64,000 bases of DNA. It comes from Candidatus Krumholzibacteriia bacterium. GTDB lineage: Bacteria > Krumholzibacteriota > Krumholzibacteriia > JAJRXK01. Below, one piece after another: positions 34,678-60,526 of this stretch (positions are counted from its first letter, which is position 1; every line of letters starts with the position of its first letter). Position numbers and translations under genes: made by a program. The DNA is taken from NCBI GenBank assembly GCA_041484665.1, contig JBGPIA010000002.1:672001-736000 (forward strand). Direction: 5' to 3'. Under the pieces are notes generated by a model. That model was not told where the DNA came from and searched no databases. It saw only the letters and a list, made by a program, of their open reading frames with translations.

Positions 34678-34732
34678 GATGGTCCGGGCCCCGGCGAGCC
34701 CGAACGCCCACCGGATCGCGCGCCCGTCGTCC

Positions 34733-36087: not shown

Positions 36088-37449
<1,362 letters not shown>

Positions 37450-37452
37450 GCC

Positions 37453-40920: not shown

Positions 40921-40922
40921 GG

Positions 40923-41711: not shown

Positions 41712-41723
41712 TGCCCCCTCCGC

Positions 41724-42410: not shown

Positions 42411-42486
42411 TGTGCTCACCTCCGGTAGCGCGCGCCGCGTGCAGCTTGTGGACTCCCGCACGCGTCCCGCGCGCACTGTTCCGCAA

Positions 42487-42502
42487 GGCATCACCCGTGC
42501 CG
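42487..42502 (-). promoter_or_regulatory. Putative sigma54 -24/-12 promoter of the GcvH-like operon
   Basis: CGGCACGGGTGATGCC (GG-N10-GC), about 77 nt upstream of ATG 42410. Confidence 0.55.
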
Positions 42503-42928
42503 TGCCCCGCACGCACGCGCGCGCAGCGGCGCGCGGCCTCGCAACTCCAAGCGTTCGCGCTGGTTGTACGCGCGCGCCGTGAAGCTCGCTGCTGCGGACG
42601 TCCGCAGTCGCGTCGAGCGTGATCGTTGACGAGCTCTACACCCGGCGCGCGCCGCGCAAGCACGGGGCGCGTGAAGCGGCGCTGCGGCAATTGGTTGGAG
42701 GCGCTGCTGCGATCCTCCACACGAGTGTGGAGAAGCTCGACGACGCGACGATGCTCGCGGACGCTGAAGGCTGCGTCAGACGGTGGGAGATGATGGAAGG
42801 TGGTGGACGGAAGTGGAAGGTGGTGGCCAACGCGACCGGCTGCGCCCGTGGGGGGTGCGGGGCGAGCGGACGGCGGCGGGTCACACGACCCGCCGCGCCC
42901 TCGACGCGAGGATTCCTGGACTGTCTTG

Positions 42929-44562: not shown

Positions 44563-45899
44563 CCCCCTTGGTCGAGACCGAACCGCGACGCGCCGCGGCC
44601 CATGTCCACGTCCACCCCCAGCAGCAGCCGCACGTCCTTGGAATAGACTGGATTATCCAGGCTTTGGACCTCGGCGCTCACGCGCAACCCGTCGCGGACG
44701 CGGGCGCGCGCGCGGGCGTAGATCGTGGTCAGGTCGCGCTGATCACTGTCAGGGGCGTCCTGCAGCAGCGCGTAGGTGGAGAGCGTCGCGCCGCCATCGA
44801 GGGACAGCCACCCCACGGGCAGCCAGCGCAGGAAGCCGTACCAGCTGCTCTCCTCGCCGGCGTCACCAATGCGCGCCGAGTAGCCGACCTGCCCGTAGGG
44901 AAACAGCAGAGCCGCGCCCAGGCGCGTGGCCGTGCGCTCGTCGACGAACGATCCGACGTACTCCAGCTCCGCTCCCATCCGCGTGCGGTGCTCGTAGCGC
45001 AGCGTGCAACGCGCCAGCCGCAGACGCTCGGCCGCGCCCACGAAGCGGGCGAAGTAGGAGCCGTCGTCGATGGCGGGCGCGCGGTCGATCACCTGCGCAG
45101 AGAGCACCGGCAGGTTCCGCCGGGGCTGCCATTGGGCCAGCGCCTCGGCCCGGTCCCAGCGCTCGCGTTGCAGATCGTAGGACAGCCGCCCGGTGCCGCG
45201 CAGGCCCGGCCACGGCGTGAGGCCTGCTTCCAGCCCCAGCGGTCGCGTGGCGATGCGGCCAGCCGTTTCGCGGTAGGCATAGGACGCGGCGAGCTGTAGC
45301 TGTCGCAGCGGCGCGCAGGTCACGCGCGCACCCCATGCCGGATCGTCACCGAGGGTCCCGGCCTCGATCTTGCGCGACAGCGGAGCTCGGGCGCCGCCGA
45401 ACACGCGCAGCCCCCACATCGCGCTCGGGCGCAGCGCGAGCCATAGACCGTCCAGCGTCAGGCCGGTGGGGCCCTCCTGGACGAACTGCCGGCCCAGCCG
45501 TGCCGTGAGCATCGAGCCGAGCCGTCCCTCGACGTGCCCGGTGTACAGTCGCTCGCGAGTGGTGGTGCGCTCCTTCAGCCACAAGTCGTCGGCGAAGCGT
45601 CCGGCGGCGCGGACGGTGAGGTGGCCGTCGACCAGGCCGCTCACCGCGCCGTCGAACTCCTGGTATCCGCCCAGGTGATCGAGATCCGGTCCGGACGGAT
45701 CGACGGTCTGGAAGCCGTAGGTCGTCGTGCGCAGCTGCAGCCGCCACGAGGGCGCGTTCCACGCGTAGCCCGGCTCGCCTGCGGCGGCGGCCCGACACTG
45801 CGGCACGGACAGCGCCGCCGCGGCGCCGAGGATCAACAGCAGGAGCGCACGCGCTGGGGCCGCCGAACACCGCCCGGGGATCATCCGCCTGTTCGCCAT
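44550..45899 (-). CDS. Outer-membrane beta-barrel porin of a porin-cytochrome cluster
   Basis: Signal peptide, 'RLGRQF...LDG' motif, amphipathic strands throughout, flanked by multiheme cytochrome genes. Confidence 0.75.
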   Translation of the reverse strand: MANRRMIPGRCSAAPARALLLLILGAAAALSVPQCRAAAAGEPGYAWNAPSWRLQLRTTTYGFQTVDPSGPDLDHLGGYQEFDGAVSGLVDGHLTVRAAGRFADDLWLKERTTTRERLYTGHVEGRLGSMLTARLGRQFVQEGPTGLTLDGLWLALRPSAMWGLRVFGGARAPLSRKIEAGTLGDDPAWGARVTCAPLRQLQLAASYAYRETAGRIATRPLGLEAGLTPWPGLRGTGRLSYDLQRERWDRAEALAQWQPRRNLPVLSAQVIDRAPAIDDGSYFARFVGAAERLRLARCTLRYEHRTRMGAELEYVGSFVDERTATRLGAALLFPYGQVGYSARIGDAGEESSWYGFLRWLPVGWLSLDGGATLSTYALLQDAPDSDQRDLTTIYARARARVRDGLRVSAEVQSLDNPVYSKDVRLLLGVDVDMGRGASRFGLDQGGWLR

Positions 45900-45990
45900 G
45901 GACCCAAGCCCCCTTCCTTCCACCACGAGACGCTGGAGCGAAAGGAGCGCCCCGCGCGCTCCTTTCGCCGATTCCCAGCGCAGCAGCCCC

Positions 45991-47676
45991 CTAGTCCGGC
46001 CGCCTCAGCACGTAGGCCTCGGCGGGCAGGGCGGTGGAATCCAGGAACAGGATGCTCTGCTGCAGCAGCTGCACCGCGTAATTCGCGTTGTGCACACCGT
46101 GCGATCCGTCGAACGAAACGAACGCCCAGTTGTAGGCGGCCTTGCGCTGATCGACCGTGGTCAGCGTCGCGTCGCCCATCCGGCCCTCGAAGTTGGCGGT
46201 GAGCGAGTCATGGGCCGCCTGCGTCGTGCTGGCGGCGACGATGCTCTGCTCGAGCACCTCAAGCAGCCCGTCCACCTCGTCCTGGACTCCCTCGACCTGA
46301 CCGTCGCCGTCATAGTCCTGCTTGGCCATGACGTCGCGGAAGCTGGCGATCGTACCGTGACAGGGGGCGCACGCCTCGACCACCGGCCGGAAGTTGTGCC
46401 CCATGAAATTGGCGATGCCGGACTCCGGGTCGCCCGGATGCGGGTGCGTGTGGCAGGTGACACACGCGTCCTGCACCAGGATGTGTTTGCTGGATGCCCA
46501 GAAGAACGACGGGTTGATCGCCTGGTAGGCGTTCACCCCCGTGATCATGTCGCCCTGCACCGAGTGGTGGGGGCCGAGGTGCGCGTTGCCGTTGGCGATC
46601 TGGTTGTTCACGTCCGTGTTGGTGCGCCGCCCGTTGTGGCAGGCCATGCACAGGCGGCCGGCACCGGCCTTCTCCACCAGTACGCCATTAGGCAGCGCCC
46701 GATCGGTGACCGATGCGTCGCGCAGGCTGCCGGGGTTGGCGTTCCCGTGGGGCTCGTGGCAGCCGGCGCAGGTCAGCATGAGGGACTCGGTGGGATTGGC
46801 CGCCAGCGCGGCGAAGCCCTCCGGGTTGTCGAGGTAGTCGGGCGCGAACAGGCCGTTGTGGCACTTCGCGCAGCTCTTGTTGAGCGCGGCGTCCTCCACG
46901 ATGCCGGCGTGGGCCGAGGACTGCCACTCGTCGTAGGTCGGGTGGTGGATCCCGTTGTGGCACTGCCCGCACAACGAGGCGTCCAGAGTCTTTCCAACCG
47001 ACGCGAAATCCGGATCGTGATGATCGCTGCCCGGTCCGTGGCAGTTCTCGCACTGCACGCCGGCCAGACGGTCGACGTGGGTCTCGTCCCAGCCGCCGTT
47101 GTTGAGAGCCGCGTCTGCGTTGAGCCCGTACGAGCCCACGGTATGACAGCCGACGCAGGCGGGGTTCTCGCCCTGCCCGATGCTCTTCAGCGAGTTGAGC
47201 GCGCCTGCGTGCCGGGAGGTGGACCAGGTGGCGTACTGCTGGCCGCCGGGGCCACCGTTGTGGCAGGTGGAGCAGAAGGTGACACCGCGGTAGAAGGGCG
47301 TGACCGACGGCAGGTAGGACGCGACACCGACATTGGCGCTGCCGATCGCGACGTCCTTGCCGTCGGTGACGACCACGGCGAGCCGGTAGATGCCCGCATT
47401 GTCGGGCGCCGTCCAGACGGTGCTGTCGGCGCTGGCGTTGGTGAAGCTTCCCCCGTCCGCAGTCCACTGATAGCTCAATGGGCTGGCGTTGGTGGCACTC
47501 GCCACCGCCTGCACCGTGATCGGCTGTCCCGTGTCCACGCTCTGGGGGGTCGCCTGGACGGTGACCTGGATCGCGGGCTTCGGGGACACGTTGACGATTT
47601 TCTCATCCCCGCACGCCACCAACAGCGCGCCAGCCAGGCACGCCGCCAGCAGGATTCCTTTCCGCCACATCATCAT
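45991..47676 (-). CDS. Nonaheme outer-membrane lipoprotein cytochrome with N-terminal PKD/Ig domain (OmcB-like)
   Basis: AGGAGG RBS, lipobox LLVAC, PKD-like 'LSYQW...GG...WTAP...G.Y', 9 CxxCH, C-terminal 'AAYNW..V..DGS.GVHN..YA..LL..S'. Confidence 0.85.
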   Translation of the reverse strand: MMMWRKGILLAACLAGALLVACGDEKIVNVSPKPAIQVTVQATPQSVDTGQPITVQAVASATNASPLSYQWTADGGSFTNASADSTVWTAPDNAGIYRLAVVVTDGKDVAIGSANVGVASYLPSVTPFYRGVTFCSTCHNGGPGGQQYATWSTSRHAGALNSLKSIGQGENPACVGCHTVGSYGLNADAALNNGGWDETHVDRLAGVQCENCHGPGSDHHDPDFASVGKTLDASLCGQCHNGIHHPTYDEWQSSAHAGIVEDAALNKSCAKCHNGLFAPDYLDNPEGFAALAANPTESLMLTCAGCHEPHGNANPGSLRDASVTDRALPNGVLVEKAGAGRLCMACHNGRRTNTDVNNQIANGNAHLGPHHSVQGDMITGVNAYQAINPSFFWASSKHILVQDACVTCHTHPHPGDPESGIANFMGHNFRPVVEACAPCHGTIASFRDVMAKQDYDGDGQVEGVQDEVDGLLEVLEQSIVAASTTQAAHDSLTANFEGRMGDATLTTVDQRKAAYNWAFVSFDGSHGVHNANYAVQLLQQSILFLDSTALPAEAYVLRRPD

Positions 47677-47754
47677 GACCCTGAACCTCCTCTTGCGATC
47701 GAGGGCAGCTCGCCGTCCGCGCGTCATGCACGCCTGGACGGTCCGCCCCCCGGC

Positions 47755-47770
47755 TGCAAACGTGATGCCA
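47755..47770 (-). promoter_or_regulatory. Sigma54 -24/-12 promoter of the porin-cytochrome operon
   Basis: TGGCATCACGTTTGCA, near-consensus TGGCAC-N5-TTGC, about 80 nt upstream of ATG 47676. Confidence 0.8.
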
Positions 47771-48138
47771 GGCGAAAACATCGGCACCAGGCAACCCGAA
47801 GTCACGCTCAATTCTGTGATCTCGCAGCCAGTGCAGAGGATCCCGGCATCTGGCGGACCCGAGCCGCCGGGTCCGTGCGGGCTGCCTTGGACATTCTGGC
47901 AGGAGCAGAGCGCCGCCCCTGCAATCCTGTCAACACTAGATCCTAAGAGATCGCGCCGAGATCGCCCGCGGAGCGGGCGTGGTGCGCCCGTCCTCGGGCA
48001 GCCACTCAGGTTTTCCTTGTGCTCGCTGCCGCGGAGTCCTATTTCGTGAGGTTCGGCGCCGCGGGGGCCCCGTGCAGCGGCTCGGGACCGCACGCCCCAG
48101 GCGCCGCTTGCTCCCCCCACGCAGGAGGTCGTCGCCCC

Positions 48139-49695
48139 ATGCCCAGCGAGCCGAGCGATCCGGTCCCCCCCCGCGATCGAAGCAAGGACGGCGGCTCCGG
48201 TCCGCGACGTCCGCTGCCGACGTCGTTCTACAATCCCATAACGCTGCTGGGCTCGCTCATCGCCGTCGTCAGTTTCGGCCTGATCCTCTTCTTGATCCTG
48301 CTGGAGGCGACTTCGGGGCACCAAAAGCCCTACATGGGGATCATCGCGTTCGTGATCCTGCCGGCCATTCTGCTGCTGGGCCTCTCGCTCGTCGCAGCGG
48401 GAGTGCTGCGGCAGCAGTACCGGCGCCGCCACGGCAAGGAGGTGGCGGCGCGCTTGCCGCGCATCGACCTCAACGATCCGCGCCACCGCCGGGCCGTGCA
48501 GCTGATCGCGCTGGGTACGGTCCTGGTGCTCGCACTGTCGGCGTTCACCAGCTTCAAGGCCTACGAGCACACCGACTCCGACCAGTTCTGTGGCCAGACC
48601 TGCCACAACGTGATGCAGCCGGAGTACACGGCCTACCGGAACTCGCCCCACGCGCGGGTCGGGTGCGTGCAGTGCCACATCGGCCCCGGAGCGAAGTGGT
48701 TCGTACGCGCGAAGCTGTCGGGCGCCTACCAGGTCTACGCCACGCTGTTCGACAAGTACCCGCGCCCCATCCCCACCCCGATCGACAACCTGCGCCCCTC
48801 GCGGGACACCTGCGAGACGTGCCACTGGCCCCAGCACTTCTTCGCGGAGAAGTTCGTCCAGAACCAGTACTACCTGTCCGACGAGCAGAACCACTCCGTG
48901 AAGCTGGACCTCTCCATCAAGATCGGCGGAGGGAACGTGGAATCGGGCCCCACGTCCGGGATCCACTGGCACATGAACGTAGCCAACGAGGTCAGCTACA
49001 TCGCGCTGGACCGCCAGCGCACGAAGATCCCCTGGGTGCGCAGCCGCTCCCGCGACGGCCTGGAGACCGTCTACCGCAGCTCGGAGCTCCCGGCCACCGA
49101 CGATGAGCTGGCCAAGGGCGAGCACCGCACCATGGACTGCATCGACTGCCACAACCGCCCCACCCACATCTACCATCCGCCCGCCAAATCCGTGAACGAG
49201 GTGATGTCCCTCGGCTGGATCGATCCGTCGCTCCCCTACGTCAAAAAGGTCGCGGTCGAGGCCATCGACCGGCCCTACAGCTCAGCGGCGGTGGCGCAGG
49301 ACAGCATCCGGGTCACGATCGAGTCGTTCTACCGCGAGAGCTACCCGGAGATCGCGGCGGCGAAGCATGCGCAGATCGAGCGGGCGGTCGTGGAGGCGCA
49401 GCGCATCTTCAGCCGCAATTTCTTCCCCGAGATGCGCGTCAGCTGGCGCAGCTTCCCGGACAACATCGGCCACATGTACTCGCTGGGCTGCTTCCGCTGC
49501 CACGACGGCAAGCACGTCAGCCAGGACGGCAAGGTGCTTTCGCGCGAATGCACCGCTTGCCACACGATCCTCGCCGAGCAGATCGGCGAAGGGAGCCAGC
49601 AGGTGTCCCTCACCGGCGTGGACTACCAGCACCCGGAGGACATCGGCGACGCGTGGCGCGAGATGAACTGCGTCGAGTGCCACGGCCCGCAGTGA
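48139..49695 (+). CDS. ImcH-like NapC/NirT-family heptaheme inner-membrane cytochrome
   Basis: Three N-terminal TMs; FCGQTCH.VM.PEY..Y..SPHARV.CV.CHIG.GA.W...KL.G..Q; then CETCH, CIDCH, CFRCH, CTACH, CVECH; AGGAGG RBS. Confidence 0.9.
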   Translation: MPSEPSDPVPPRDRSKDGGSGPRRPLPTSFYNPITLLGSLIAVVSFGLILFLILLEATSGHQKPYMGIIAFVILPAILLLGLSLVAAGVLRQQYRRRHGKEVAARLPRIDLNDPRHRRAVQLIALGTVLVLALSAFTSFKAYEHTDSDQFCGQTCHNVMQPEYTAYRNSPHARVGCVQCHIGPGAKWFVRAKLSGAYQVYATLFDKYPRPIPTPIDNLRPSRDTCETCHWPQHFFAEKFVQNQYYLSDEQNHSVKLDLSIKIGGGNVESGPTSGIHWHMNVANEVSYIALDRQRTKIPWVRSRSRDGLETVYRSSELPATDDELAKGEHRTMDCIDCHNRPTHIYHPPAKSVNEVMSLGWIDPSLPYVKKVAVEAIDRPYSSAAVAQDSIRVTIESFYRESYPEIAAAKHAQIERAVVEAQRIFSRNFFPEMRVSWRSFPDNIGHMYSLGCFRCHDGKHVSQDGKVLSRECTACHTILAEQIGEGSQQVSLTGVDYQHPEDIGDAWREMNCVECHGPQ

Positions 49696-49863: not shown

Positions 49864-49896
49864 CACCTGCGCGCGCCGTGCGCAGGTGCCTTTTTT
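49864..49896 (+). terminator. Intrinsic terminator
   Basis: CACCTGCGC...GCGCAGGTG stem followed by CCTTTTTT. Confidence 0.75.
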
Positions 49897-49999
49897 CCCC
49901 TTGGCTGCATCGCGAGCGTGTCCTTGTTTTCCCGTGGCCGATGATGGCCGGTATATCGAAACGTACCGCATCTCGCTCACTGGATCGGGGCGCTGGGCA

Positions 50000-51211
50000 A
50001 TGCCTGCCGATCGTGCATCTTCGCTCGCGGTGATCTCGCTCGCCCGGCTGCTTTGCGGCGCGGGTGTGCCGGCGATTCTGGCTGCAGCACCGCCCGGATC
50101 CGCTGCACCGCTATCGGGATCCGCCGCAGTACTGTCTGAATCCTCTGCACCGCTGTCCGGATCCTCTGCACCGCTCTTTGAATCCGCAGCGCAGCCGCTC
50201 GCCGCGCTGGGCGATGCTCACGACGTCGCCGTCTCCATCAAGTCCGTCATCGCGATCCTCCCCGGCCCCTCTGCGCTGGACACTTTCCGCAGGCCGGTGG
50301 GCCTGTGCGCCGACGCGCGGCGTCACATTTTCATCGTGGCGGACACGGGCAATCAGCGTCTGGCGATCTTCGACGAGGCGGGGCGCTGCCGGGGCACGCT
50401 CGCCTACGCGCAGGGCCGGCCCGGGCCGGTCACACCCGGCGTCCCGCAGGTCCGCACCGCTGAGCCCGCGTCCGTGGCCATCGATGCGCGCGGGCGCTTG
50501 TACGTGCTGGACAACATCGGGCACACCGTCGAAGTGCTCACCGCCCTCGGCTCGCACCTCAGTTGGCTGGAGCCGCCGTTGCCCGGCGCAGCGGCGAGCG
50601 AGGCACAGGCCGACTACGTGGCCGTAGGCGCCCTCGGCAACATCCATCTGTTGTACTCCGGCGCCGTGCCCGGCCTGGTGATCGTGGAGCCCAAGGGGGA
50701 CCTGATCGCGTCACTGGGCTTCGAGCGCGGCGATGCGCGGGCGCTCAGGACCCCCATCTGCGTCGCAGTCGATCCGCAGGAGCGCGAGCTCGCCGTGGTG
50801 GATCCGGAGGCGGAGCGTGAGGTGCGCGTGCTCGGAGTGGACGGCACGCTGCTCGCGGCGTTCGGCACGCACGGCGAGGCGCAGGGCACCCTCTCCATGG
50901 CCGTGCACGTGGCGTGGGGCCCGGGCCACTCGCTGTGGGTCACCGACACCATCCGCCATTCGATCAGCATCTTCGACGACCGGGGCGCGTTCCTGGACCG
51001 CATCGGCGGCTTCGGGGCGGCTCCGGGCCAGTTCAACTATCCGGCCGCGTGCGCCTTCCTTGGCGACGACCGGCTGGTGGTGCTGGAGCGGGCGGGCGCC
51101 CGTTGCCAGATCCTCGAGGTGGAGACGCAAGGTCTCCGCCAGGCCCGCGCGACCCGCACCGCTGCGGGTCGCGCCAAGCCACAGCGCGTGGCAACCGGGA
51201 ATGGGGGGTGA
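50000..51211 (+). CDS. Exported NHL-repeat beta-propeller protein
   Basis: F.RP.G...VADTGN.R..IFD, P.SVAID..GR.YV.D, FG..G...G, IGGFG..PGQF.YP repeats; start uncertain. Confidence 0.88.
   Translation: MPADRASSLAVISLARLLCGAGVPAILAAAPPGSAAPLSGSAAVLSESSAPLSGSSAPLFESAAQPLAALGDAHDVAVSIKSVIAILPGPSALDTFRRPVGLCADARRHIFIVADTGNQRLAIFDEAGRCRGTLAYAQGRPGPVTPGVPQVRTAEPASVAIDARGRLYVLDNIGHTVEVLTALGSHLSWLEPPLPGAAASEAQADYVAVGALGNIHLLYSGAVPGLVIVEPKGDLIASLGFERGDARALRTPICVAVDPQERELAVVDPEAEREVRVLGVDGTLLAAFGTHGEAQGTLSMAVHVAWGPGHSLWVTDTIRHSISIFDDRGAFLDRIGGFGAAPGQFNYPAACAFLGDDRLVVLERAGARCQILEVETQGLRQARATRTAAGRAKPQRVATGNGG
50099..50182 (+). repeat. In-frame 21-bp tandem repeat x4 (SAAPLSG/SAAVLSE/SSAPLSG/SSAPLFE)
   Basis: Read directly: four TCC(G/T)C.GCA...G(G/A)A units. 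Confidence 0.85.
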
Positions 51212-51305
51212 GAGCGGCAAACGAATCCGCGTCTTGATGGACTCCCCCGACAGCAATCGCGGCGAGGGTCGTCGCGATGCCGAAGGGATCTCAGGGAGGT
51301 GAGAA

Positions 51306-52364
51306 TTGTACAGCAAGAGAATCCTGACATCGGTGGGTGTGGTGTTGGCCATCATGGCGATGGCGAGCCTGAGCATCGCGGGCGATTTCCATGCTGGGAT
51401 CAACCTGGTCTGCAGCGATTGCCACGTCATGCACTTCAGCCAGGGCCACGGGTACAATGCCAATGGCTCGGGCAACACCACGGCGTTGGGAGCTGCGGGG
51501 CCGTACGAGCTGCTGCTGCGCAACGACATCAGCGAGCTCTGTCTGAGCTGCCACGACGGCCAGGCCTGGGCTCCCGACGTGTTCGAGAGCCACGGCAACG
51601 GCTACGTGCGCCAGGCGGGGGCGTTGAATGAAGTGGGCGGCAACGGGCAGTATCCGCCGACCACGGGGCATACCCTGGGGTCGACGGCGGTTGCTCCGGG
51701 GAGCAGCCCGCCATGGAGCAGCCCGGACGGGTTGGAGTGCACCAACTGCCATGCCGCGCACGGTGGCGGCACGGCCGGCAACTCGTACCGCAATCTGGGC
51801 GGATTTGGCACGGTGCCCGGCCCGGCGTTGGCTATCAGCTACTCGCGTGGCGACGTCGAAGTCAGCAACGACCTGACCAAGTGGGTCTTCGAGTCGGCGT
51901 CGAGCGGCGTCACCGCGAACCACTACGGCGTGGGCGCCATCACGTTCAACGAGCCCGACCAGAACAAGTCGAAGTACGGTGAGTTCTGCAAGAGCTGTCA
52001 CACGAACTTCCACGGGGACGTGGGCGGCACGGAGCTCGGTGGCGGGGCGGCGGGCCGTTTCCACCGTCACCCGACCAACGGCGCCGACATCGCAGGATCG
52101 AACCTGACCCGCTTCCTGGGCAAGGCCAACGAGGTCCAGGTGATGTCGGCCGCCGGCCACAAGCCCGGCACCTACGTTGCAACCGACACCGATCTGACGC
52201 CTTCCTGCATGACGTGCCACAAGGGGCATGGCGACCAGAACGCGTTCGGCCTCATCTTCATGGTGGGGACGGGCACGGTCACGGAGCAGGGAGACAATGG
52301 GGTCGACATGCGCAACACCTGCCGCCAGTGCCACCCCCAGGGCGGCACCAGTACGGCCTACTAG
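51306..52364 (+). CDS. OmcS-like hexaheme c-cytochrome (candidate nanowire subunit)
   Basis: GGGAGGT RBS plus TTG; signal peptide; FH-x6-CSDCH-VMH, CLSCH, GH...APG...CTNCH..HG...YR.LGG, FCKSCH.NFH...RHP, CMTCHK.H, CRQCH. Confidence 0.8.
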   Translation: MYSKRILTSVGVVLAIMAMASLSIAGDFHAGINLVCSDCHVMHFSQGHGYNANGSGNTTALGAAGPYELLLRNDISELCLSCHDGQAWAPDVFESHGNGYVRQAGALNEVGGNGQYPPTTGHTLGSTAVAPGSSPPWSSPDGLECTNCHAAHGGGTAGNSYRNLGGFGTVPGPALAISYSRGDVEVSNDLTKWVFESASSGVTANHYGVGAITFNEPDQNKSKYGEFCKSCHTNFHGDVGGTELGGGAAGRFHRHPTNGADIAGSNLTRFLGKANEVQVMSAAGHKPGTYVATDTDLTPSCMTCHKGHGDQNAFGLIFMVGTGTVTEQGDNGVDMRNTCRQCHPQGGTSTAY

Positions 52365-52551
52365 GTCGGGTCGCTGGCGGGCAGGGGCGCTTTGCTCGGT
52401 GGCTCGCGCAAGGCCCCTGGGCGGGTCTTGGATGGAAGCGTCCTGACGCTGGAACCCAGGGTCGAGCCGCCGACACTCCGGCCAATGTCGGCGGCCGCAC
52501 CTGGGGTCGCTCTCCACTCTCCTCCAACCGCGCGGCCGGCGGGAGTCTGCG

Positions 52552-53733
52552 GTGAAGACCGTATCCGGCGCGGCCTCGATCCTCGCTGTTGCGATCAGCC
52601 TGCTCGCCAACGCCTCCAGCACGGCGCAGGCCCCTGCCATCGTCTTCGATCCGCACGGAGACCCACAGACGGGCGTGTTGCGCGTGCTCACCGATCCACC
52701 GTCGCGCGGCGAGTGCCAGCAGTGCCATCCCACCCACGGTGACGAAACAGAGCCGTTCCCGTCGCCGCCCGTGCTCTTCACCGAGAACGACAACCGACTC
52801 GCGTTCTGGAACGACGGCATCCAGCCCTGCCACAGCGTCCGTCCCGAGAACTACCCGCTGGCCGAGCAGGACCGCATGCCCGAGAGCGCGCCCGACCCGG
52901 GCTACTTCGAGGCCAACGTAGGCGGCCTGCGCCGTGCGGGCGTGCAGTACCGCGGTCGCTGGCCCGGCGAGCTCGTGTACACCAATCCCGGGCAGACCCC
53001 GCGCGGCCACTGGATCTCCCCCCACGGGCACGATCCCGACATGCCGCGCAAGGATAGCGGCGGCGAGGGCCTCTGCCTGAACTGCCACGATCCGCATGGC
53101 AACAGCGACCGCCGCGATCTGCTGGTCGCGGACTACGGCGGCGTCGGCGGCCGGGCCTCGGTGGGACCGCCGCAGCAGTACGCCCTTTGCTTCTGGTGCC
53201 ATGGGACCAAGGGCGCCGCGGGCATGGAGCCGGGCAGCCGCTTCGTCGAGGACTACTATGACGCGGGCCTCAACGGCAGCCGCGCCGGGCACCAGATCCG
53301 CAAGAACCCGAGGATCGCCCTCTCCTGGCCCGCACACGTCCAGGCGGGCGACATGCTTCCTTGCTACGACTGCCACAACCCGCACGGCTCCCAGGGAAAC
53401 AACCGCTCCCAGCCGAACGGGTACCTGATCAGCGACGAGCGCCAAGGATGGAGCGGCCTCACCGACCCGCTGGACTATCCGCCCCAAGCCCGGGCGTTCT
53501 GCCTGGGCTGCCACATCCTCTCTGACGGGATTGCGGGATCCCAGGTGGTCGAGGGGATCGTCATGAACACGCTGTCTGACGACCCCGCGCACCGCTCGTC
53601 GGCGACGGCGGCCTGCCCGGATTGCCACGGCCGCGACTACACCGGGCCGACGAGCAACAACGCGCACAATCCCGGGGCGGGTGTGGACAAGACCAAGACG
53701 CCGGGAAACCTGGGGAGCCCGTGGGAACCATGA
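52552..53733 (+). CDS. Exported multiheme cytochrome (6 CxxCH plus 1 degenerate motif)
   Basis: CQQCH, CLNCHDPH, CFWCH, CYDCHNPH, CLGCH, CPDCH and C-terminal AH; GTG start. Confidence 0.85.
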   Translation: MKTVSGAASILAVAISLLANASSTAQAPAIVFDPHGDPQTGVLRVLTDPPSRGECQQCHPTHGDETEPFPSPPVLFTENDNRLAFWNDGIQPCHSVRPENYPLAEQDRMPESAPDPGYFEANVGGLRRAGVQYRGRWPGELVYTNPGQTPRGHWISPHGHDPDMPRKDSGGEGLCLNCHDPHGNSDRRDLLVADYGGVGGRASVGPPQQYALCFWCHGTKGAAGMEPGSRFVEDYYDAGLNGSRAGHQIRKNPRIALSWPAHVQAGDMLPCYDCHNPHGSQGNNRSQPNGYLISDERQGWSGLTDPLDYPPQARAFCLGCHILSDGIAGSQVVEGIVMNTLSDDPAHRSSATAACPDCHGRDYTGPTSNNAHNPGAGVDKTKTPGNLGSPWEP

Positions 53734-55313
53734 GGGGCGTCCTCGCCACCGCGGCGTGCGCGCTCGCGCTGGCGAGCGCTGGGTGGCCCGCAGCCCCGGC
53801 TCGCGCGCTGGAAGGCCGCTACCTTGCTTCCATGGTGCACACCGAGGGGGCCGAGAGCGACGACATCCTGCGCCAGCGCTACGACATGGGCACGCAATCG
53901 GTCACCCCGGGCAACCTCAGCCTGGATCTGCGCATGTCGTTGTCCCACCAGGTCCGGCCCGGGGAGTCCAACACTGGGCTCTTGGGCAGCCGTTTCTTCG
54001 GCGACCTGCGCAGCCCCGCGTGGCGCCTGCGCGGACAGATCGTCCCGTGGCAGGACCTCAACCCGGGAGCCAACTCCCCGCGCGAGCGCAATCTGCAGGC
54101 CGGTCTGGATCTGATGCCGCGCGGAGCGCCGCGCCTTTCGCTCGACTACCAGAGGCTCGACCGCGACGTCCAGAACCAGCGCAGCTTCTCGGAGGACCGG
54201 CGCGCCCAGCTCGCCTACGAGACGGGCGGCGTCTCGGCAAACCTCCGCTACCGCAATCTCGGCACTCGCTCGCCCGAGAGCCGCACGCCGGGCGCGCAGA
54301 CGCGGGAATGGCGCGGCTTCGTCAGCGGCACGCGCAGCTACAAGCGCCTCAGCGGCCAGGCCTCCTACGATGGACTGCTCTCCCGCTTCCGCTCCGGAGA
54401 TCGCGCCCGCGACCTCACGACCCAGCAGGTCGACCTCAGCGGAACGTGGAGCCCGAGCCGCAAATTGACCCTAGGCGCCACTGCGCTGGATCGCTGGGGC
54501 CAGGTGCAGGACAACATCCAGAACGGCGACCGCGCGATCGCCGCCCGCGCCCTCAGCGCGCGGGCGGATTACACGCCCGTCACGCCTATCCAGCTGCAGG
54601 CGGCGCGCGAGTACCGGCGCGAGGCGGCCCCGACCGGCGACGTCGTCTCCGATTACCTGCGCCTGCAAGGGATCTTCCGCCGGCCGCTCCTGCGCGCCAT
54701 GACCTTCCAGACGGGCTACGAGCAGACCGTGAACCTGCAGAGCGGTGGCGGCAGCGTGCCCAGCAGCACGGGCTTCGCCCTGCTGGATGGGCACGTGCGC
54801 ACTGGCGTCGAAGGGCACGGCGAGGTGCGGGCCGCGCACACTCCAGGCGGGGGCGCGCCGGGCATCCAGTGGATGCGCCTGCTGCAGCTGCGCACCTATC
54901 CCAGCCGCAGCTCGCGGCTGGAGGCCAGCTACCGTCTCGAGACGCTTCCGGTCGACTCGCTGACGCAGCGGGATCGCCAGTGGGACTTCACGGCCGGATA
55001 CGATCCTTCGGCGAACATCAGCTTGGTGGGCTCCTACCGCATGCAGGACGGTACGGGGCGCGTCGACCGCTCCGAGCGCAACGCCTCAGCCAGCACCACG
55101 TGGCGAGCCGCCCGGCGGACATCGATGGGCGTGAACTGGTCCCACCGCCGGGCGCGCGCGGCTTTGGCGCAGACGCGCGAGACCGTCACAGGGGTGGACG
55201 TCACGTTCTGGCTGCCGGGAGAATGGAAGCTCCACGGCTCGGCCAACTACGTGACCAGCGATTATCGTCAGGACATGACCTCGTACAACGTGATCCTCGA
55301 GAAGGTCTTCTGA
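53730..55313 (+). CDS. Large outer-membrane beta-barrel protein
   Basis: ATGA overlap with upstream stop, signal peptide ending ARA, continuous amphipathic strands, C-terminal YNVILEKVF beta-signal. Confidence 0.8.
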   Translation: MRGVLATAACALALASAGWPAAPARALEGRYLASMVHTEGAESDDILRQRYDMGTQSVTPGNLSLDLRMSLSHQVRPGESNTGLLGSRFFGDLRSPAWRLRGQIVPWQDLNPGANSPRERNLQAGLDLMPRGAPRLSLDYQRLDRDVQNQRSFSEDRRAQLAYETGGVSANLRYRNLGTRSPESRTPGAQTREWRGFVSGTRSYKRLSGQASYDGLLSRFRSGDRARDLTTQQVDLSGTWSPSRKLTLGATALDRWGQVQDNIQNGDRAIAARALSARADYTPVTPIQLQAAREYRREAAPTGDVVSDYLRLQGIFRRPLLRAMTFQTGYEQTVNLQSGGGSVPSSTGFALLDGHVRTGVEGHGEVRAAHTPGGGAPGIQWMRLLQLRTYPSRSSRLEASYRLETLPVDSLTQRDRQWDFTAGYDPSANISLVGSYRMQDGTGRVDRSERNASASTTWRAARRTSMGVNWSHRRARAALAQTRETVTGVDVTFWLPGEWKLHGSANYVTSDYRQDMTSYNVILEKVF

Positions 55314-55325
55314 GGGGGGCGCATC

Positions 55326-55904
55326 GTGACACGCTCGAGCCCATCCTGGGCGCCCGTCGTGCTGGCGGCGCTCGCGCTGGTCGGATGCGCCGGCCCGGCA
55401 CGGTTCGTCGACCCCGAGGCCGACCTTCCCTTCTATGAGGTCGTGGGAGTCGTCCCCTTCGTCACGCTGGCGCAGGACCGCCTCGCCGGCGAAAAGGCCA
55501 CCAACGTGTTCTTCACCGAGCTGCTCGGCCGCCGCTTCGCCCGCGTCACGGAGCCCGGCCAGTTCACCGCCGCCATGCAGCGCGTGCGCGGCGGGACGTC
55601 AGCGGCCAACCCCTGGTCCACAGCGGAGCTCGTGCGCCTGGGCGAGGAGGCCGGCGTGCAAGGGGTCTTCATGGGGACGGTGCGCGACTGGGACATGGCG
55701 CCAGCCGGGCGCGAGTCGTTCCCGTTGATCTCGCTCGAAGTCCGGCTGGTGGACACTGCGTCGGGACGCGTCGTCTGGAGCGCGAGCCAGACGCGCAAGG
55801 GCGGCCCCGCGCTGCCCCTGATCGGCTGGGGCGAGATCCACACGCTCGGTGAGCTGGCCTCCGACATGTGCCGCAACCTGCTCAAGACGCTGCCTCGAAA
55901 ATAG
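55326..55904 (+). CDS. CsgG/GNA1162-like lipoprotein
   Basis: Lipobox LVGC; 'V.VVPF..L', 'LG...GV..V..G.V', 'RLVD..SG.VVWS'. Confidence 0.75.
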   Translation: MTRSSPSWAPVVLAALALVGCAGPARFVDPEADLPFYEVVGVVPFVTLAQDRLAGEKATNVFFTELLGRRFARVTEPGQFTAAMQRVRGGTSAANPWSTAELVRLGEEAGVQGVFMGTVRDWDMAPAGRESFPLISLEVRLVDTASGRVVWSASQTRKGGPALPLIGWGEIHTLGELASDMCRNLLKTLPRK

Positions 55905-55916
55905 AGGACGAGCGCG

Positions 55917-56663
55917 ATGGAGCTGCACTTCCACCCACTGCATCCGCGGCCACGCGTCCACCGGCTCGCTGCCGGGCGCGCACGCGGGCGCAGGCGGTGC
56001 TCGGTGACCGCGTTGCCGGGCTCGGCGACGCTGGGCGGCCCTGCGCTGCTGGGCGCCGCGCTGCGGGCCACGGCGCTGCTGGTCACGGCGCTGCTGGGCG
56101 CCTGCGGCGGGGCGTCTCCCCACGCCTTCGTCACCGAGCCGATCCAAGGGCCATTGCGCGTCGCGATTCTTCCGCTAGCCAACTACGCACCCGCGCGCGA
56201 TGCCGTCGATCGTGTGATGCCGGCACTGCTCGTTGGCCTGGGGCGCATGCGCGGTCTGGAGGTCGTGGATCCTGGACGCGTCGAGGAAGCGCTCGCACAG
56301 GAGCCCTGGCTGCTCATGGACCGCATCCCGCCGGACCTGGTGGGACGGCTGGGACAGTCGCTGGGCGCCGACGCGCTGCTGATGGGCTCCCTGCTCTCCT
56401 ACGGCTACCGCGAGTCCGGCGGCGAGCGCACGCCCCAGGTCTCCTTCTCGCTGCGCCTGGTGCAGGTGCCGAGCGCGCGCGTGCTCTGGAGTGCCGTACA
56501 CAGCCGCGACGGCGCCGACCACGAGTGGATCTTTGGCCTGGGGCGCGTGGAGAGTCTCGATCTGCTGACCACGCGGACGGTGGAGGAGATCCTCGAGAGC
56601 CTCCCGGTGAATGCCGACGGCAGAGCAGCCACGGCCGAACAAGAAACCGGAAAGGGGAAGTGA
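55917..56663 (+). CDS. CsgG/GNA1162-like lipoprotein (paralog)
   Basis: Lipobox LGAC; 'VAILPL.N', 'LG..LGADALL.G', 'LRLV.V....VLWS'. Confidence 0.75.
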   Translation: MELHFHPLHPRPRVHRLAAGRARGRRRCSVTALPGSATLGGPALLGAALRATALLVTALLGACGGASPHAFVTEPIQGPLRVAILPLANYAPARDAVDRVMPALLVGLGRMRGLEVVDPGRVEEALAQEPWLLMDRIPPDLVGRLGQSLGADALLMGSLLSYGYRESGGERTPQVSFSLRLVQVPSARVLWSAVHSRDGADHEWIFGLGRVESLDLLTTRTVEEILESLPVNADGRAATAEQETGKGK

Positions 56664-56665
56664 CC

Positions 56666-57235
56666 ATGTTCGCGGAGCACGCCCTCGTGGCTTGGTTGAT
56701 CTGCGGTCTGGCATCGCCGGCGCCTCCTGCGCAGCGCGCGCAGCCCGCGGCAGCTGCGCCGGCAGCCATCGCGCCGGCAGCGCATACGGCGCCCGCCGCG
56801 CATCCGGTGCCCGCCGCGCCGCCGGCAGCGGCCGGGGAAGCGAAGGCGGCCGGCGACTCGACCCAGGCGCCCAACGTCAAGTTCGTGCCCGTGCCGCAGG
56901 ACACGAGCCTCGTCTTCCTGATCCAGGCCGGCAACCGCCTCTATCCCGAATGGAAGGAGGAGCACAGGGTGCGCCTGCACGAGCGCTTCCCGCTGGGCGA
57001 CACGCGCAACAGCGCGGAAGTCGGCCGCTTCTTCCCCGACTTCCGCATCATCGACGGCAAGCCCATGAACGTCGGGCGGACGCTGGGCAATCCAGCCATC
57101 CGCGTGTTCGTGTTCGAGGAGGAAGCGCCAAAGGACAGCTCGTGGGCGTTCCTGAATTTTCCGCCGCATTTCTCGCCGCACTCGTTCTACACGTTTCAGC
57201 TCGAGCAGGTGAAGGGCTACCCAGCCGCGAATTGA
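56666..57235 (+). CDS. Exported protein with ResB-periplasmic/DUF2155-like domain
   Basis: Signal plus Ala/Pro linker; 'F.PDF.I.DG.....NPAIRV.V.E......W.F..FP' pattern (family assignment from memory). Confidence 0.55.
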   Translation: MFAEHALVAWLICGLASPAPPAQRAQPAAAAPAAIAPAAHTAPAAHPVPAAPPAAAGEAKAAGDSTQAPNVKFVPVPQDTSLVFLIQAGNRLYPEWKEEHRVRLHERFPLGDTRNSAEVGRFFPDFRIIDGKPMNVGRTLGNPAIRVFVFEEEAPKDSSWAFLNFPPHFSPHSFYTFQLEQVKGYPAAN

Positions 57236-57307
57236 TGCGTCGACTGGAAGGGTTGCCTCCCGGAGAGCGCCCGGCGCCGCGGAGGCTCGTGGGTGTGGAG
57301 GTCTGCC

Positions 57308-60300
57308 ATGCGTAGGGCAACGGGGATCGGGTGGGTGGAGTCCTGGAGGCTCTCCCTGGGGGTCGCGACTGCGTTGGTATGCGCGGCGGCCACGGCCACG
57401 GCGCCGCCAGCGCGCGCCGCCACCGGCCGGCCCTGCTACGAATGCCACAAGGAGGCGCGGGAGCAGTTCAAGAAGCTCGTGGTCCATCCACCGGTGGCCA
57501 AAGAGGACTGTGAGGCGTGCCACAAACGCCACGGCTTCGCGCAGACGCTGATCCTCCAGAAGAGCTTCCCCGATCTCTGCACCGGATGCCACGCGAACGT
57601 GATTGCGCCGCCCTCCGGCGCCCAGGCTGGCAAGACGGGGTCCAACCACCTGGTGTACGCGTCGGTGAACTGCGTGTCGTGCCACGATCCCCACGCCGCC
57701 GACCGCAAGGGCCTCCTGCGCGGCACGCAGGCACAGACCTGCGCCCAATGCCACCCGCGCATCCAGGCCGCGCTCACCGCCAAGGAGCCGCACAAGCCGT
57801 TTGCCGAGGGGAAGTGTGACGCCTGTCACGGAACCCACGACGCGCCGCAACCCAACCTGCTGCTGGCGCCCGAGGCCGAGCTGTGCGCCCGCTGCCACGG
57901 TCCAACGGTGGGGTTGCCGGAACTCCATCGTCGACCGGAGGTGGCGGGCGCCGCCTGCTCCTCGTGCCACGATCCCCACGGGGCGCCCAAGGCGGGCAGC
58001 GGCGGCGGCTACATCCACCAGCCGTTCGCCGAGGCCAACTGTGGCGTCTGCCACACCGACCCCAAGGCCGATCCCAAGGCGCTCACCGCCACCCAGGGCG
58101 AGCTGTGCGGGACATGCCACGGCGAGGTGGCCACGGTCGCCCAGGCACAGGGTGGACATCCGCCTGCCGCGGCCGGGGATTGCACGCGCTGCCACGAGCC
58201 ACACCGCTCCGACCGCGGCGCGCTCCTGAAAGGTGACGCCGAGGATCTTTGCATGCCCTGCCACGGCGACTTGCGCGACCAGCAGAAGCTCGCCGCGCAG
58301 CACGCGCCGTTCCGCGACCTGGACTGCTCCGCCTGCCACGCGCCGCACGGCAGCACGACCACCGCGATGCTGAAACAAGTGCCCCAGGCGCTGTGCCAGT
58401 CCTGTCACCAACCGATCGTGGACAAGGCCAAGGCCGCCAAGGCGCAGCATCCGCCGGTGCTGACGGACTGCTCGGCCTGCCACGTACCCCACGCCAGCGA
58501 GCAGCCGAAGCTGTTACACGATCTTCCCGGTCAGACCTGCCTTGGCTGCCACTCTGCCCAGGAGGCCGAGCAGAAGCTACCCGTGGTGCACTTGCCATTC
58601 TCCGTGGGTGACTGCGGCTCGTGCCATGGAGCGCACGGGACCGATGTGCCCGGCATGCTGGTGCGCAGCGATCCGGTGCTCTGCATCACGTGTCACCGCA
58701 AGCAGGGTGACGAGCGGCACATGGCCGCTCCCCACGCCCCGTTCGCTGCGGGCGAATGCTCGACGTGCCACGCCCCGCACGCGGGGAGGAATGGCGGGCT
58801 GCTGGTCTCCTCGCAGCAGGAGCTTTGCGCGAGCTGCCACGGCCAGATCAAAGGCACCGCGGCAGCGGCGACCGCGGCGGCCCCCAGCGCCGCCAGCCTG
58901 CACGCGCCGGTCGCGGGCGGCGAGTGCTCCGCCTGTCACAACCCGCACGCCGTCGACTCGGGCAAGGCGCTGCTGCGCGAGGCGGGCGGTGCCGAGCTGT
59001 GCTTCACGTGCCACACCGCGCTCAAAGACTCCTTCGCCGCGGGCGTCGTCCACGCCCCCGTCAAGGAAGGCAAGTGCACCACTTGTCACGACGGCCACCA
59101 GACCATGGATGACAAGGGCCAGATCCTGCTGAAGACGGCCTGCACCAGCTGCCATGACGCCGGCACGGGCGACTTCCGCAAGATCCACGGGGAATTCCAG
59201 CTGGAGGCCTCGACCTGCGTGGAGTGCCACGACCCGCACCGCAGCGACGCCAAGGGACTGCTGCGCAAGGTGCGCCACGAGCCGTTCGCCAGCGATGCGT
59301 GCGGTACCTGCCACCAGCCGCCGGCTCCCGGCCGCGCCCCGCAGCTCTTGTCCGAGCAGGGTAAGCTGTGCGCGAGCTGCCACGGCGCGCCGCAGGAGCC
59401 GGCGCCGCCCAAGGGGCTGCACGCGCCCGTGGCCGCCGGTGAGTGCAGCGAGTGTCACAATCCCCATGTGGCGCAGCGGGCCGCCCTGCTGCGTGGCAGT
59501 GGCGGTGACCTGTGCCTGCGCTGCCACGACGACCTCGACTTGGCCCTGAAGACCGCCGGTCCCGAACTCGTCCACAAGCCCGTGGAGGCCAAGCAGTGCG
59601 ACGCGTGCCACGGCGGGCACACCGGCATCATGCCGGGCCTGCTGGACCAGAGCGTCCCCGGCTTGTGCGCGACCTGCCACGGCGATGTGCTGGAGCGCGC
59701 CGGGCGCAAGTTCGGCCACGCGCCCGCCAAGCAGGGCAAATGCCTGGAGTGCCACGACCCGCACCTGGGCAAGAGCAAGGGGCTGCTGGTCACCGCCAGC
59801 ACGCGGGAACTGTGCGCCAAGTGCCACGACAGCAACGCTGCGCACTTCCAGACCGCCCATCGCGGCTTCAAGGTCGGACTCGGCAACTGCGCCGGCTGCC
59901 ACGACCCCCACGGGTCGGACCAGAAGGGGCTGATGCCGGCGTTCGCCCACGTTCCGTATGCAGAGGGCGAGTGCGCGTCGTGCCACGCATCGCCGGATCA
60001 GCTGGTGGCGTCACCGCCGCAGCTGTGCACGAGCTGTCACGACGACCACGCGCAGGACGCCCAGAAGGCCTTCCCGCACAAGGCCGTCTCCGAAGGGCCG
60101 GCGTGCCTCAACTGCCATGCTCCCCACGCAGGCAAGACCGCGTCCCTACTGATCCGCGAGGACGTGGGCAGGACCTGCTGGACGTGCCACGAGCGCGCCG
60201 CCTTCCAGCACAAGAACCAGCACCCCGACCTGCAGAGCGGTTGCACCAACTGCCACGACCCGCACGGCAGCGCTACGGGAAGGATCCTGAAGGCGCCCGA

Positions 60301-60526
60301 GGCGGAGCTCTGCATCAAGTGCCACGACGCCACCAAGACCCACGCCCACCCGATCGGCGCTCCGGCGAAGGACCCGCGCACGGGCGAGGCCTTGACCTGC
60401 ACGTCGTGCCACTCGCCGCACAGCAGCGATCAGGAGGCGCTGCTCACGCACGAGAAGAAGCGGGAGCTGTGCGTGCAATGTCACCTCGGCCCGAACCTCG
60501 AGGTGCGCGGCAGGAAGTCGCACTAG
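57308..60526 (+). CDS. Giant periplasmic multiheme cytochrome (42 CxxCH)
   Basis: GGAGG RBS, signal peptide ending ARA; 42 CxxCH counted in 'H.P....CxxCH.PH...LL.....LCxxCH' doublets. Confidence 0.95.
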   Translation: MRRATGIGWVESWRLSLGVATALVCAAATATAPPARAATGRPCYECHKEAREQFKKLVVHPPVAKEDCEACHKRHGFAQTLILQKSFPDLCTGCHANVIAPPSGAQAGKTGSNHLVYASVNCVSCHDPHAADRKGLLRGTQAQTCAQCHPRIQAALTAKEPHKPFAEGKCDACHGTHDAPQPNLLLAPEAELCARCHGPTVGLPELHRRPEVAGAACSSCHDPHGAPKAGSGGGYIHQPFAEANCGVCHTDPKADPKALTATQGELCGTCHGEVATVAQAQGGHPPAAAGDCTRCHEPHRSDRGALLKGDAEDLCMPCHGDLRDQQKLAAQHAPFRDLDCSACHAPHGSTTTAMLKQVPQALCQSCHQPIVDKAKAAKAQHPPVLTDCSACHVPHASEQPKLLHDLPGQTCLGCHSAQEAEQKLPVVHLPFSVGDCGSCHGAHGTDVPGMLVRSDPVLCITCHRKQGDERHMAAPHAPFAAGECSTCHAPHAGRNGGLLVSSQQELCASCHGQIKGTAAAATAAAPSAASLHAPVAGGECSACHNPHAVDSGKALLREAGGAELCFTCHTALKDSFAAGVVHAPVKEGKCTTCHDGHQTMDDKGQILLKTACTSCHDAGTGDFRKIHGEFQLEASTCVECHDPHRSDAKGLLRKVRHEPFASDACGTCHQPPAPGRAPQLLSEQGKLCASCHGAPQEPAPPKGLHAPVAAGECSECHNPHVAQRAALLRGSGGDLCLRCHDDLDLALKTAGPELVHKPVEAKQCDACHGGHTGIMPGLLDQSVPGLCATCHGDVLERAGRKFGHAPAKQGKCLECHDPHLGKSKGLLVTASTRELCAKCHDSNAAHFQTAHRGFKVGLGNCAGCHDPHGSDQKGLMPAFAHVPYAEGECASCHASPDQLVASPPQLCTSCHDDHAQDAQKAFPHKAVSEGPACLNCHAPHAGKTASLLIREDVGRTCWTCHERAAFQHKNQHPDLQSGCTNCHDPHGSATGRILKAPEAELCIKCHDATKTHAHPIGAPAKDPRTGEALTCTSCHSPHSSDQEALLTHEKKRELCVQCHLGPNLEVRGRKSH

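Follow-up and report, generated by a model that had tools for sequence, protein, structure and literature searches.

A compact, divergent relative of the omcS-companion gene cluster in a Candidatus Krumholzibacteriia genome, predicted to assemble and export a filament of an OmcS-family cytochrome

In sediments, long-range extracellular electron transfer is driven by cytochrome nanowires, which are also of interest as conductive biomaterials. For the hexaheme cytochrome OmcS of Geobacter sulfurreducens, a cluster of omcS-companion (osc) genes, GSU2504-GSU2493, has reportedly been described by Shen et al. in 2025 (said to be Cell Chem Biol 32:239). The subject of this report is a cluster of eight genes at positions 50000-60526 of a 64,000-nucleotide stretch of DNA (the whole of which is called the window) from Candidatus Krumholzibacteriia bacterium, assembly GCA_041484665.1, contig JBGPIA010000002.1, positions 672,001-736,000 of the forward strand. 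The cluster is probably a compact, divergent osc variant, which would assemble and export an extracellular filament built of an OmcS-family hexaheme cytochrome.

Nanowire secretion was still called speculative in a 2025 review (PMC12307469). The roles proposed in PMC13194489 are folding for OscH, secretion for OscE, OscF and OscG, and morphology for OscD; OscC is listed there as periplasmic. According to bioRxiv 10.1101/2025.11.06.686851, the eight-gene block GSU2500-2493 always accompanies an OmcS-like hexaheme cytochrome, and GSU2495 contains 26 heme-binding motifs, while GSU2497 is annotated as a lipoprotein (PMC3495685). Reference loci for comparison were collected by scanning the genome collection with a degenerate DNA pattern encoding the OmcS N-terminal motif, which yielded 25 loci from Geobacteraceae, Geobacter sp., Anaeromyxobacter, Myxococcales, Nitrospirota, and others. 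These are regarded as true omcS loci, because the protein of locus L038 can be aligned with the whole of the solved OmcS chain (6EF8, 407 residues; E 8e-158). Where the loci are long enough, the recurring order is NHL protein, OmcS (sometimes accompanied by paralogues), propeller, OscE, OscF, OscG, peptidyl-prolyl isomerase (PPIase), and large cytochrome. The OscD position is occupied by a YncE/lactonase-like propeller lipoprotein of 443-481 amino acids, the OscE position by a protein of 714-757 amino acids without Pfam match, and the OscF position by an LpoB/GNA1162-like lipoprotein of 183-198 amino acids; OscG (387-390 amino acids) contains two LpoB/GNA1162-like domains, OscH is a SurA-like PPIase of 576-603 amino acids, and OscI, at the distal end, is a very large multiheme cytochrome.

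Judged by sequence and profile comparison with these loci, six of the eight cluster genes are homologous to components encoded beside true omcS, two of the canonical helpers have no counterpart, and two genes are peculiar to the cluster type. The six homologous components are an NHL propeller, the OmcS-family hexaheme cytochrome, an OscE-related putative barrel, an OscF-related and an OscG-related lipoprotein, and a large multiheme cytochrome. OscF matches lipoprotein 1 over its full length (tblastn, E 3e-23, 34% identity), and the large cytochromes located downstream of the PPIase at the omcS loci match that of the window with E values of 1e-38 to 1e-80 (tblastn); the barrel aligns with the N-terminal third of OscE (hhalign, 93-95%). 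The NHL propeller (50000-51211, + strand, 403 amino acids; Pfam NHL, E 2.8e-14) carries a hydrophobic signal at its N-terminus as well as a Ser/Ala/Pro-rich linker. At 14 of the 25 omcS loci, an NHL protein is encoded at this same place, directly before the OmcS-type gene. An NHL protein from an omcS locus matches it with E 3.9e-5, and the NHL protein of a relative (L021) with E 5.6e-15 (tblastn).

The cluster comprises eight intact, co-oriented genes within 10.5 kb. Since the GC content of the window is about 70%, real genes are recognisable by a high third-position GC content, which lies between 0.82 and 0.90 in the cluster genes, all on the + strand. Intergenic gaps are 94, 187, -4, 12, 12, 2, and 57 nucleotides, in 5' to 3' direction, and an N-terminal signal peptide or lipobox is seen on inspection in all eight proteins. 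Upstream, a terminator-like hairpin (49864-49898, + strand; an 11-bp stem with eight GC pairs, followed by the T-run CCTTTTTTCC) stands 3' of a NapC/NirT-like gene and closes it off from the cluster, and the gene directly downstream, encoding an OPT transporter, is on the opposite strand; the operon unit is therefore taken to be 50000-60526. The RNA structure in the 187-nucleotide gap 3' of the first hexaheme gene is unremarkable (z -0.69). The stretch is present in DNA sequencing runs of sediment metagenomes, and there is no RNA run among the sequencing runs listed as containing it. By the names of homologues and the Atlas taxa, its affinities are with Candidatus Eisenbacteria (Eiseniibacteriota) or neighbouring groups. 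An initial annotation, made from the letters of the DNA, had presented these genes as a co-oriented operon with short gaps or overlaps and with these boundaries, naming an OmcS-like hexaheme cytochrome, a barrel of about 530 amino acids ending in Phe, and a 42-heme cytochrome; open reading frames (ORFs), third-position GC content, Pfam matches, and counts of CXXCH motifs bear out all of this, the nature of the barrel being putative. The synteny and profile comparison with omcS clusters that it had proposed gave the six matched genes described above.

The first hexaheme cytochrome (51306-52364, + strand, 352 amino acids) contains six CXXCH motifs and a signal peptide, followed by DFHAG...CSDCHVMH, and has a TTG start behind a visible ribosome-binding site, GGGAGGTGA. 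Its homologues number at least 524 when clustered at 90%, and almost all of these are unnamed metagenome proteins. The profile of 28 of these homologues matches the solved OmcS structure 6EF8 with E 4.4e-7, and the alignment of the family with 14 true OmcS-family sequences (hhalign, 99.7%, E 1.4e-26, 324 columns) runs end to end, beginning at the mature N-terminus and reaching the last of the six heme motifs, with the six hemes collinear. The motif DFHxG...CxxCHVMH, combining FHxG and CHxMH, is invariant in all 28 aligned homologues; the last histidine of CHVMH, equally invariant, aligns with position 16 of the solved OmcS chain. In OmcS, this His16 reportedly ligates a heme of the neighbouring subunit (Wang et al. 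2019). By these profile comparisons the first hexaheme is a distant member of the OmcS family. In one of the relatives' loci (L021), an extra cytochrome gene with seven CXXCH motifs lies upstream of the NHL gene (L021:13944-15122); over 341 residues, its product shares 30% identity with the first hexaheme (E 9e-25), an indication that the OmcS-type gene was duplicated locally.

The second hexaheme cytochrome (52552-53733, + strand, 393 amino acids, six CXXCH motifs, signal peptide) is, as far as profiles can tell, a distant paralogue of the first and a far more remote representative of their common superfamily. It aligns with the family of the first hexaheme over 262 columns (hhalign, 98%, E 2.7e-13) and with true OmcS over just 48 N-terminal columns. 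Its identity in the relatives is 51-62%; at the osc loci of five canonical genomes only chance-level matches to it were obtained. Five of its orthologues were flagged as containing one internal TGA. Selenocysteine was considered for the orthologue in L050, the one inspected, and rejected, the TGA being the terminal stop codon.

At the distal end of the operon, as at the omcS loci, a very large c-type cytochrome is encoded (57293-60526, + strand, 1077 amino acids, signal peptide). It contains 42 CXXCH motifs, which Pfam covers with 22 doubled-CXXCH stretches. Exactly 42 motifs are also found in the large cytochromes of all four relatives counted (L017, L018, L020, L021). This number is constant at an identity of only 35-52%, and the number of hemes seems to be under selection. 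Heme maturation in trans is supported, as the initial annotation had proposed in noting that the window encodes no CcsA/CcmF heme lyase and that maturation must be supplied in trans: PF01578 (CcsA/CcmC/CcmF) has no match on the contig of the window (C2) and three on contigs C1 and C5, in frames of 677 (CcmF-sized), 264, and 344 amino acids.

Between lipoprotein 2 and the large cytochrome, a small exported protein of 189 amino acids is encoded (56666-57235, + strand), which consists of a Pro/Ala-rich linker and a conserved C-terminal domain of about 110 amino acids. It sits at the OscH position, and it is kept at the same position in all seven relatives' loci. An overlapping ORF, 56611-57315, was rejected as being in the wrong frame. 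The initial annotation had called this protein ResB/DUF2155-like. The ResB part of the label has no support, and no match to ResB was found in the genome (93.65% complete); DUF2155 stays as a lead. Neither the small protein nor any of five orthologues has a Pfam match, ResB and DUF2155 included, and no counterpart was found at the osc loci of the five canonical genomes. A distant homologue elsewhere in genome G043 carries DUF2155 (PF09923, E 8.4e-11) and matches the small protein with E 1.1e-6 in a one-genome HMMER search but with E 0.13 in pairwise BLASTP; the Atlas neighbours of the small protein, at 0.81-0.84, include clusters in which 13-32% of the members have DUF2155. It is thus possibly a remote DUF2155 relative.

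Conservation of the block was followed with the barrel protein as the query in 40 relatives. The barrel was found in six of them and in none of the nine from the window's own family; five of the resulting loci were fetched (L017-L021), and two more (L050, L051) were added later. In all seven loci these eight genes recur in an identical order, the barrel in L019, L050, and L051 being identified by position and ORF alone, and this recurrence places the gene order beyond chance. Across L017-L021, identity to the window is 30-62% for the cytochromes and lipoproteins and 18-36% for the barrel. Flanking genes, including the NapC-like gene, are not kept beside the block. In a wider sample of the phylum, the second hexaheme was found in 19 of 208 genomes (that of the window counted), representing five of nine families. 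The description of the cluster as transferable, given in the initial annotation, is in keeping with this patchy spread, with the absence of the barrel from the nine family members, and with the unconserved flanks, all of which suggest transfer; no mobility genes were seen. As for the compact export machine that it had proposed, compactness stands, as that of an osc relative; such a machine is not new in kind, because the system is reportedly already published by Shen et al. in 2025.

The putative outer-membrane β-barrel (53730-55313, + strand, 527 amino acids) has a signal peptide and ends in ...EKVF, with a C-terminal Phe. Its assignment as a barrel is suggested by 22 segments of alternating hydrophobicity, compared with 5.5 +/- 2.0 in column shuffles, by the lack of any long hydrophobic helix in the protein, and by a C-terminal aromatic residue in seven of eight orthologues derived from the loci; an Atlas search gave a lead to porin clusters. 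A word-based homologue search returned three proteins only, and alignments were built from the genome loci instead. Against OscE, tblastn found nothing, while hhalign gave 95% (E 3.9e-8) with six sequences and 93% (E 2.7e-7) with ten, in both cases over the N-terminal 215 columns. Proteins at the OscE position (e.g., L027:12745-14919) show a faint CBM32 / F5-8 type C similarity in a middle region, at profile positions ~306-399 (E ~0.1). The shorter barrel of the window seems to be without this region. Among solved structures, no meaningful relatives were found with profiles of the barrel, of OscE, of the second hexaheme, or of the small protein.

Several observations weigh against the interpretation of the cluster as a filament-exporting osc variant. 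Polymerisation of the first hexaheme is a prediction from its sequence; the identity of the protein to OmcS is low (about 22-26%), a plain phmmer search of solved-structure sequences did not retrieve OmcS, and the AlphaFold2 (AF2) model of the hexaheme is unusable, with a predicted local distance difference test (pLDDT) score of 41.6, as was to be expected because hemes are absent from the modelling. The motifs it has in common with OmcS are also present in OmcS paralogues encoded beside omcS (e.g., L024:12563-13891), which, according to bioRxiv 10.1101/2025.11.06.686851, are not known to form wires. Crude sequence features are what identify the barrel; it has no Pfam or PDB sequence match, PelB included, in sequence and profile searches, and its similarity to OscE is confined to the N-terminal third of that protein. 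OscD has no tblastn match at E <= 0.01, and the OscH PPIase none, in the window or five relatives' loci, the rest of the genome lying outside the search; these are the very components linked to morphology and folding, respectively, in PMC13194489. Finally, the names OscD to OscI were put on the fetched genes by order and published descriptions only.

The main alternative is a fixed porin-cytochrome conduit across the outer membrane, in which part of the 42-heme cytochrome would lie within the barrel, the hexahemes would be surface-located terminal reductases that do not polymerise, and the lipoproteins would have no function beyond stabilising the complex. A barrel, a very large cytochrome of periplasmic type, and smaller exported cytochromes are indeed the ingredients of porin-cytochrome systems, and the window contains another such set on the minus strand (43609-47946). 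The paralogues of OmcS that have the same motifs and are not known to form wires are compatible with such an arrangement, as is the periplasmic listing of OscC. Nevertheless, a conduit is unlikely, if the most serious alternative. It would leave aside that six of the eight genes have homologues in the osc set, to whose members PMC13194489 assigns proposed roles in OmcS nanowire formation; moreover, the hexahemes carry ordinary signal peptides rather than lipoboxes, and rings of the PelC type, to which the lipoproteins belong, are known from polymer export and not from cytochrome conduits (5T10, 9H80).

The two lipoproteins encoded directly downstream of the barrel, lipoprotein 1 (55326-55904, + strand, 192 amino acids, lipobox LVGC) and lipoprotein 2 (55917-56663, + strand, likely start near 56004, lipobox LGAC), are paralogous (27% identity over 186 amino acids, E 6e-18), and their mature forms have about 170 residues. 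With tblastn, the lipoproteins of the window match 19 of the 25 omcS loci, with E values down to 1e-22. The relation to OscG is seen through the orthologues of lipoprotein 2, eight of which were aligned: the C-terminal domain of OscG (residues ~203-371) matches those in L017-L020 with E values of 5.7e-7 to 2.4e-21. For lipoprotein 2 of the window itself, no OscG match was reported in the same tblastn run, in which its match to OscF has E 6.6e-9. A 35-sequence profile for lipoprotein 1, searched against solved structures, finds PelC (9H80, E 3.5e-7, residues 11-179), followed by further PelC structures (5T11/5T10) and GNA1162 (4HRV). The AF2 model of lipoprotein 1 (192 amino acids, pLDDT 91.5) is a compact α/β domain, for which the top Foldseek matches are PelC again (5T10, 5T0Z, 9H80; E 3e-10 to 1.5e-9, template modelling (TM) score to target 0.67-0.83), then GNA1162, FlgT, and LpoB. 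From profile and predicted structure alike, the lipoproteins are of the PelC type, and CsgG is only a remote fold relative.

This assignment bears on the claim of the initial annotation that the two proteins are CsgG-like. Their paralogy was correctly recognised, and membership in the fold group of CsgG, LpoB, and PelC stands, together with homology to omcS-associated genes; likeness to CsgG in particular, and with it the CsgG pore, is not supported. If the lipoproteins themselves formed a secretion pore in the outer membrane, as CsgG does, the weak Pfam CsgG (PF03783) match of lipoprotein 2 (E 0.003, 17.3 bits against a gathering threshold of 20.8), the common α/β fold, and the presence of CsgG (4UV2) in the Foldseek list (E 2e-5) would find an explanation. 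Such a pore is very improbable, however. All Pfam matches of the lipoproteins, which include LpoB, GNA1162-like, and FlgT_M, are below threshold, and lipoprotein 1 has no Pfam CsgG match. CsgG is absent from the profile matches of lipoprotein 1 among solved structures and stands at rank 28 in the Foldseek list, outranked by PelC, GNA1162, FlgT, and LpoB (TM score 0.33-0.46, or 0.33-0.41 to target, against 0.67-0.83 for PelC). No extended membrane hairpins are seen in the confident AF2 model, and a mature length of about 170 residues leaves no room for hairpins of the CsgG type. Moreover, the gene immediately upstream is a dedicated barrel gene, conserved together with the lipoproteins. PelC forms a ring beneath a separate barrel. 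Since PelC-type lipoproteins are organised in this way and the barrel gene is always adjacent here, the pore is, by analogy with PelBC, more likely the barrel than the lipoproteins. A Pel-like exopolysaccharide exporter that merely neighbours cytochrome genes is scarcely credible, even if PelC is the best match of the lipoprotein in both structure and sequence and JGI names some homologues 'polysaccharide biosynthesis protein PelC', for the block contains neither a glycosyltransferase gene nor any other pel gene, the lipoproteins and barrel keep a fixed order with the cytochromes in eight genomes and at true omcS loci, and the barrel has neither a tetratricopeptide repeat (TPR) region nor a sequence match to PelB.

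The lipoprotein superfamily is large, with 1981 representatives at E <= 0.001, and among the 150 representatives listed there are tandem two-domain fusions, proteins P0301, P0305, P0323, and P0349 being noted among the fusions. Tandem two-domain forms, together with the two-domain OscG, fit an oligomeric assembly. P0323 is a relative of the lipoproteins with a C-terminal OmpA-like region; P0349 is fused to a long TPR region, recalling the TPR-plus-porin build of PelB.

For the osc-like filament exporter, which is the interpretation preferred here, the following mechanism is proposed. Export of the proteins would be by Sec, and their heme would come from a Ccm system whose genes lie on other contigs. 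Around the barrel, at the inner face of the outer membrane, the two PelC-fold lipoproteins would assemble into a ring like that of PelC around PelB. The first hexaheme would pass through this channel and polymerise outside the cell, with the histidine of CHVMH being donated to a heme of the next subunit. Electrons would cross the periplasm by way of the 42-heme cytochrome and so reach the filament at its base. The NHL propeller, which is present where the cluster has no OscD match, may act on filament handling in place of OscD. The second hexaheme might serve as an anchor, tip, or periplasmic adaptor; this is a guess, as any role for the small protein would be. Gene content, conservation, homologies, and lipoprotein fold are observed; the ring, the passage through the barrel, polymerisation, and the electron route are predictions.

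In a bolder version, the cluster would be a minimal nanowire machine that does without PPIase and OscD, in which the two hexahemes share one filament, one forming the shaft and the other its base or tip, and in which a ring-and-barrel exporter of the PelBC kind, borrowed from polysaccharide secretion, is fed by a single periplasm-spanning 42-heme cytochrome. This version is speculative and rather doubtful. If it were true, these eight genes would make up the smallest self-contained unit with which cytochrome nanowires could be transplanted into other bacteria.

Several neighbouring genes in the window may be related to electron transfer. Directly upstream of the operon, a membrane-anchored cytochrome of the NapC/NirT family with six or seven heme motifs (48139-49695, + strand) may link the quinol pool to the periplasm. 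On the minus strand, and reading away from the operon, 43609-47946 contains a second electron-transfer module, composed of a 12-CXXCH cytochrome (43609-44652), a protein of 484 amino acids without Pfam match that is possibly a porin (44550-46004), and a multiheme cytochrome with a PKD domain (~46000-47946); the layout looks like that of a porin-cytochrome complex. On the same strand, 36088-42635 encodes a sigma-54 response regulator and a HAMP histidine kinase beside NrfD-like, 4Fe-4S, and GcvH-domain genes, possible regulators and a possible membrane redox complex serving the neighbouring cytochrome genes. At 32650-35335 (minus strand), a protein of 713 amino acids combines an 11-CXXCH domain with a cytochrome b561-type membrane domain (Ni_hydr_CYTB), adjoined by a tetraheme c554-like protein; the fusion presumably resembles CbcL, the inner-membrane quinol oxidase of Geobacter. 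Finally, 29676-32816 (minus strand) encodes a protein of 1046 amino acids with lamin-tail and Ig-like domains and a weak match to Por_Secre_tail, the sorting signal of type IX secretion.

The cluster type keeps part of the Geobacter companion set, yet several families of a sediment-dwelling phylum about which little is known have conserved the block. The six components common to both cluster types are therefore likely to be the core of the machinery, and the PPIase and the OscD propeller look dispensable or replaceable. The PelC assignment offers a concrete structural model of the channel, namely, a ring and a barrel. Being small, with eight genes in 10.5 kb, the cluster is a practical candidate for heterologous reconstruction.

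Summarizing the comparison with known systems, the osc cluster is the closest: in both, an OmcS-family hexaheme is encoded beside a propeller, a putative OscE-related outer-membrane protein, PelC-fold lipoproteins, and a very large cytochrome, in one orientation. The barrel of the window is about 200 residues shorter and is without the middle insert of OscE, and the lipoproteins are two single-domain proteins, whereas osc combines one single-domain with one two-domain protein. The window adds the very divergent second hexaheme and the small, possibly DUF2155-like protein; its large cytochrome has 42 hemes as opposed to the 26 motifs given for GSU2495 in bioRxiv 10.1101/2025.11.06.686851, and its OmcS relative is about 80 residues shorter, at the low identity mentioned above. 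With OmcS itself (6EF8, 6NEF), the first hexaheme shares six collinear CXXCH motifs, the FHxG-type mature N-terminus, the histidine three residues after the first heme motif (position 16), and several conserved histidines outside the motifs; it differs in having about 326 mature residues instead of 407, in a homology that is seen by profiles only, and in that its polymerisation is predicted.

The exporter part resembles PelBC (PelC dodecamer, 5T10/5T11; PelBC, 9H80), where a small PelC-fold lipoprotein is likewise encoded beside an outer-membrane barrel. Differences from PelBC are the presumed cargo, which would be a heme protein and not a polysaccharide, the presence of two paralogous lipoproteins instead of one, whose ring is postulated by analogy with PelC, and a barrel without TPR domain and without sequence similarity to PelB. 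With the CsgG channel (4UV2, 4UV3), the cluster has in common a lipoprotein with a related α/β core fold and a presumed service in the secretion of fibre subunits, but its lipoproteins are without membrane hairpins and below the Pfam threshold, and a separate barrel is present. The OmcE nanowire cluster, as described in PMC13712944, is built around the tetraheme OmcE, which belongs to another subunit family; the likeness, drawn from that description, suggests that cytochrome-filament loci, the OmcE cluster and the cluster of the window among them, share a common logic.

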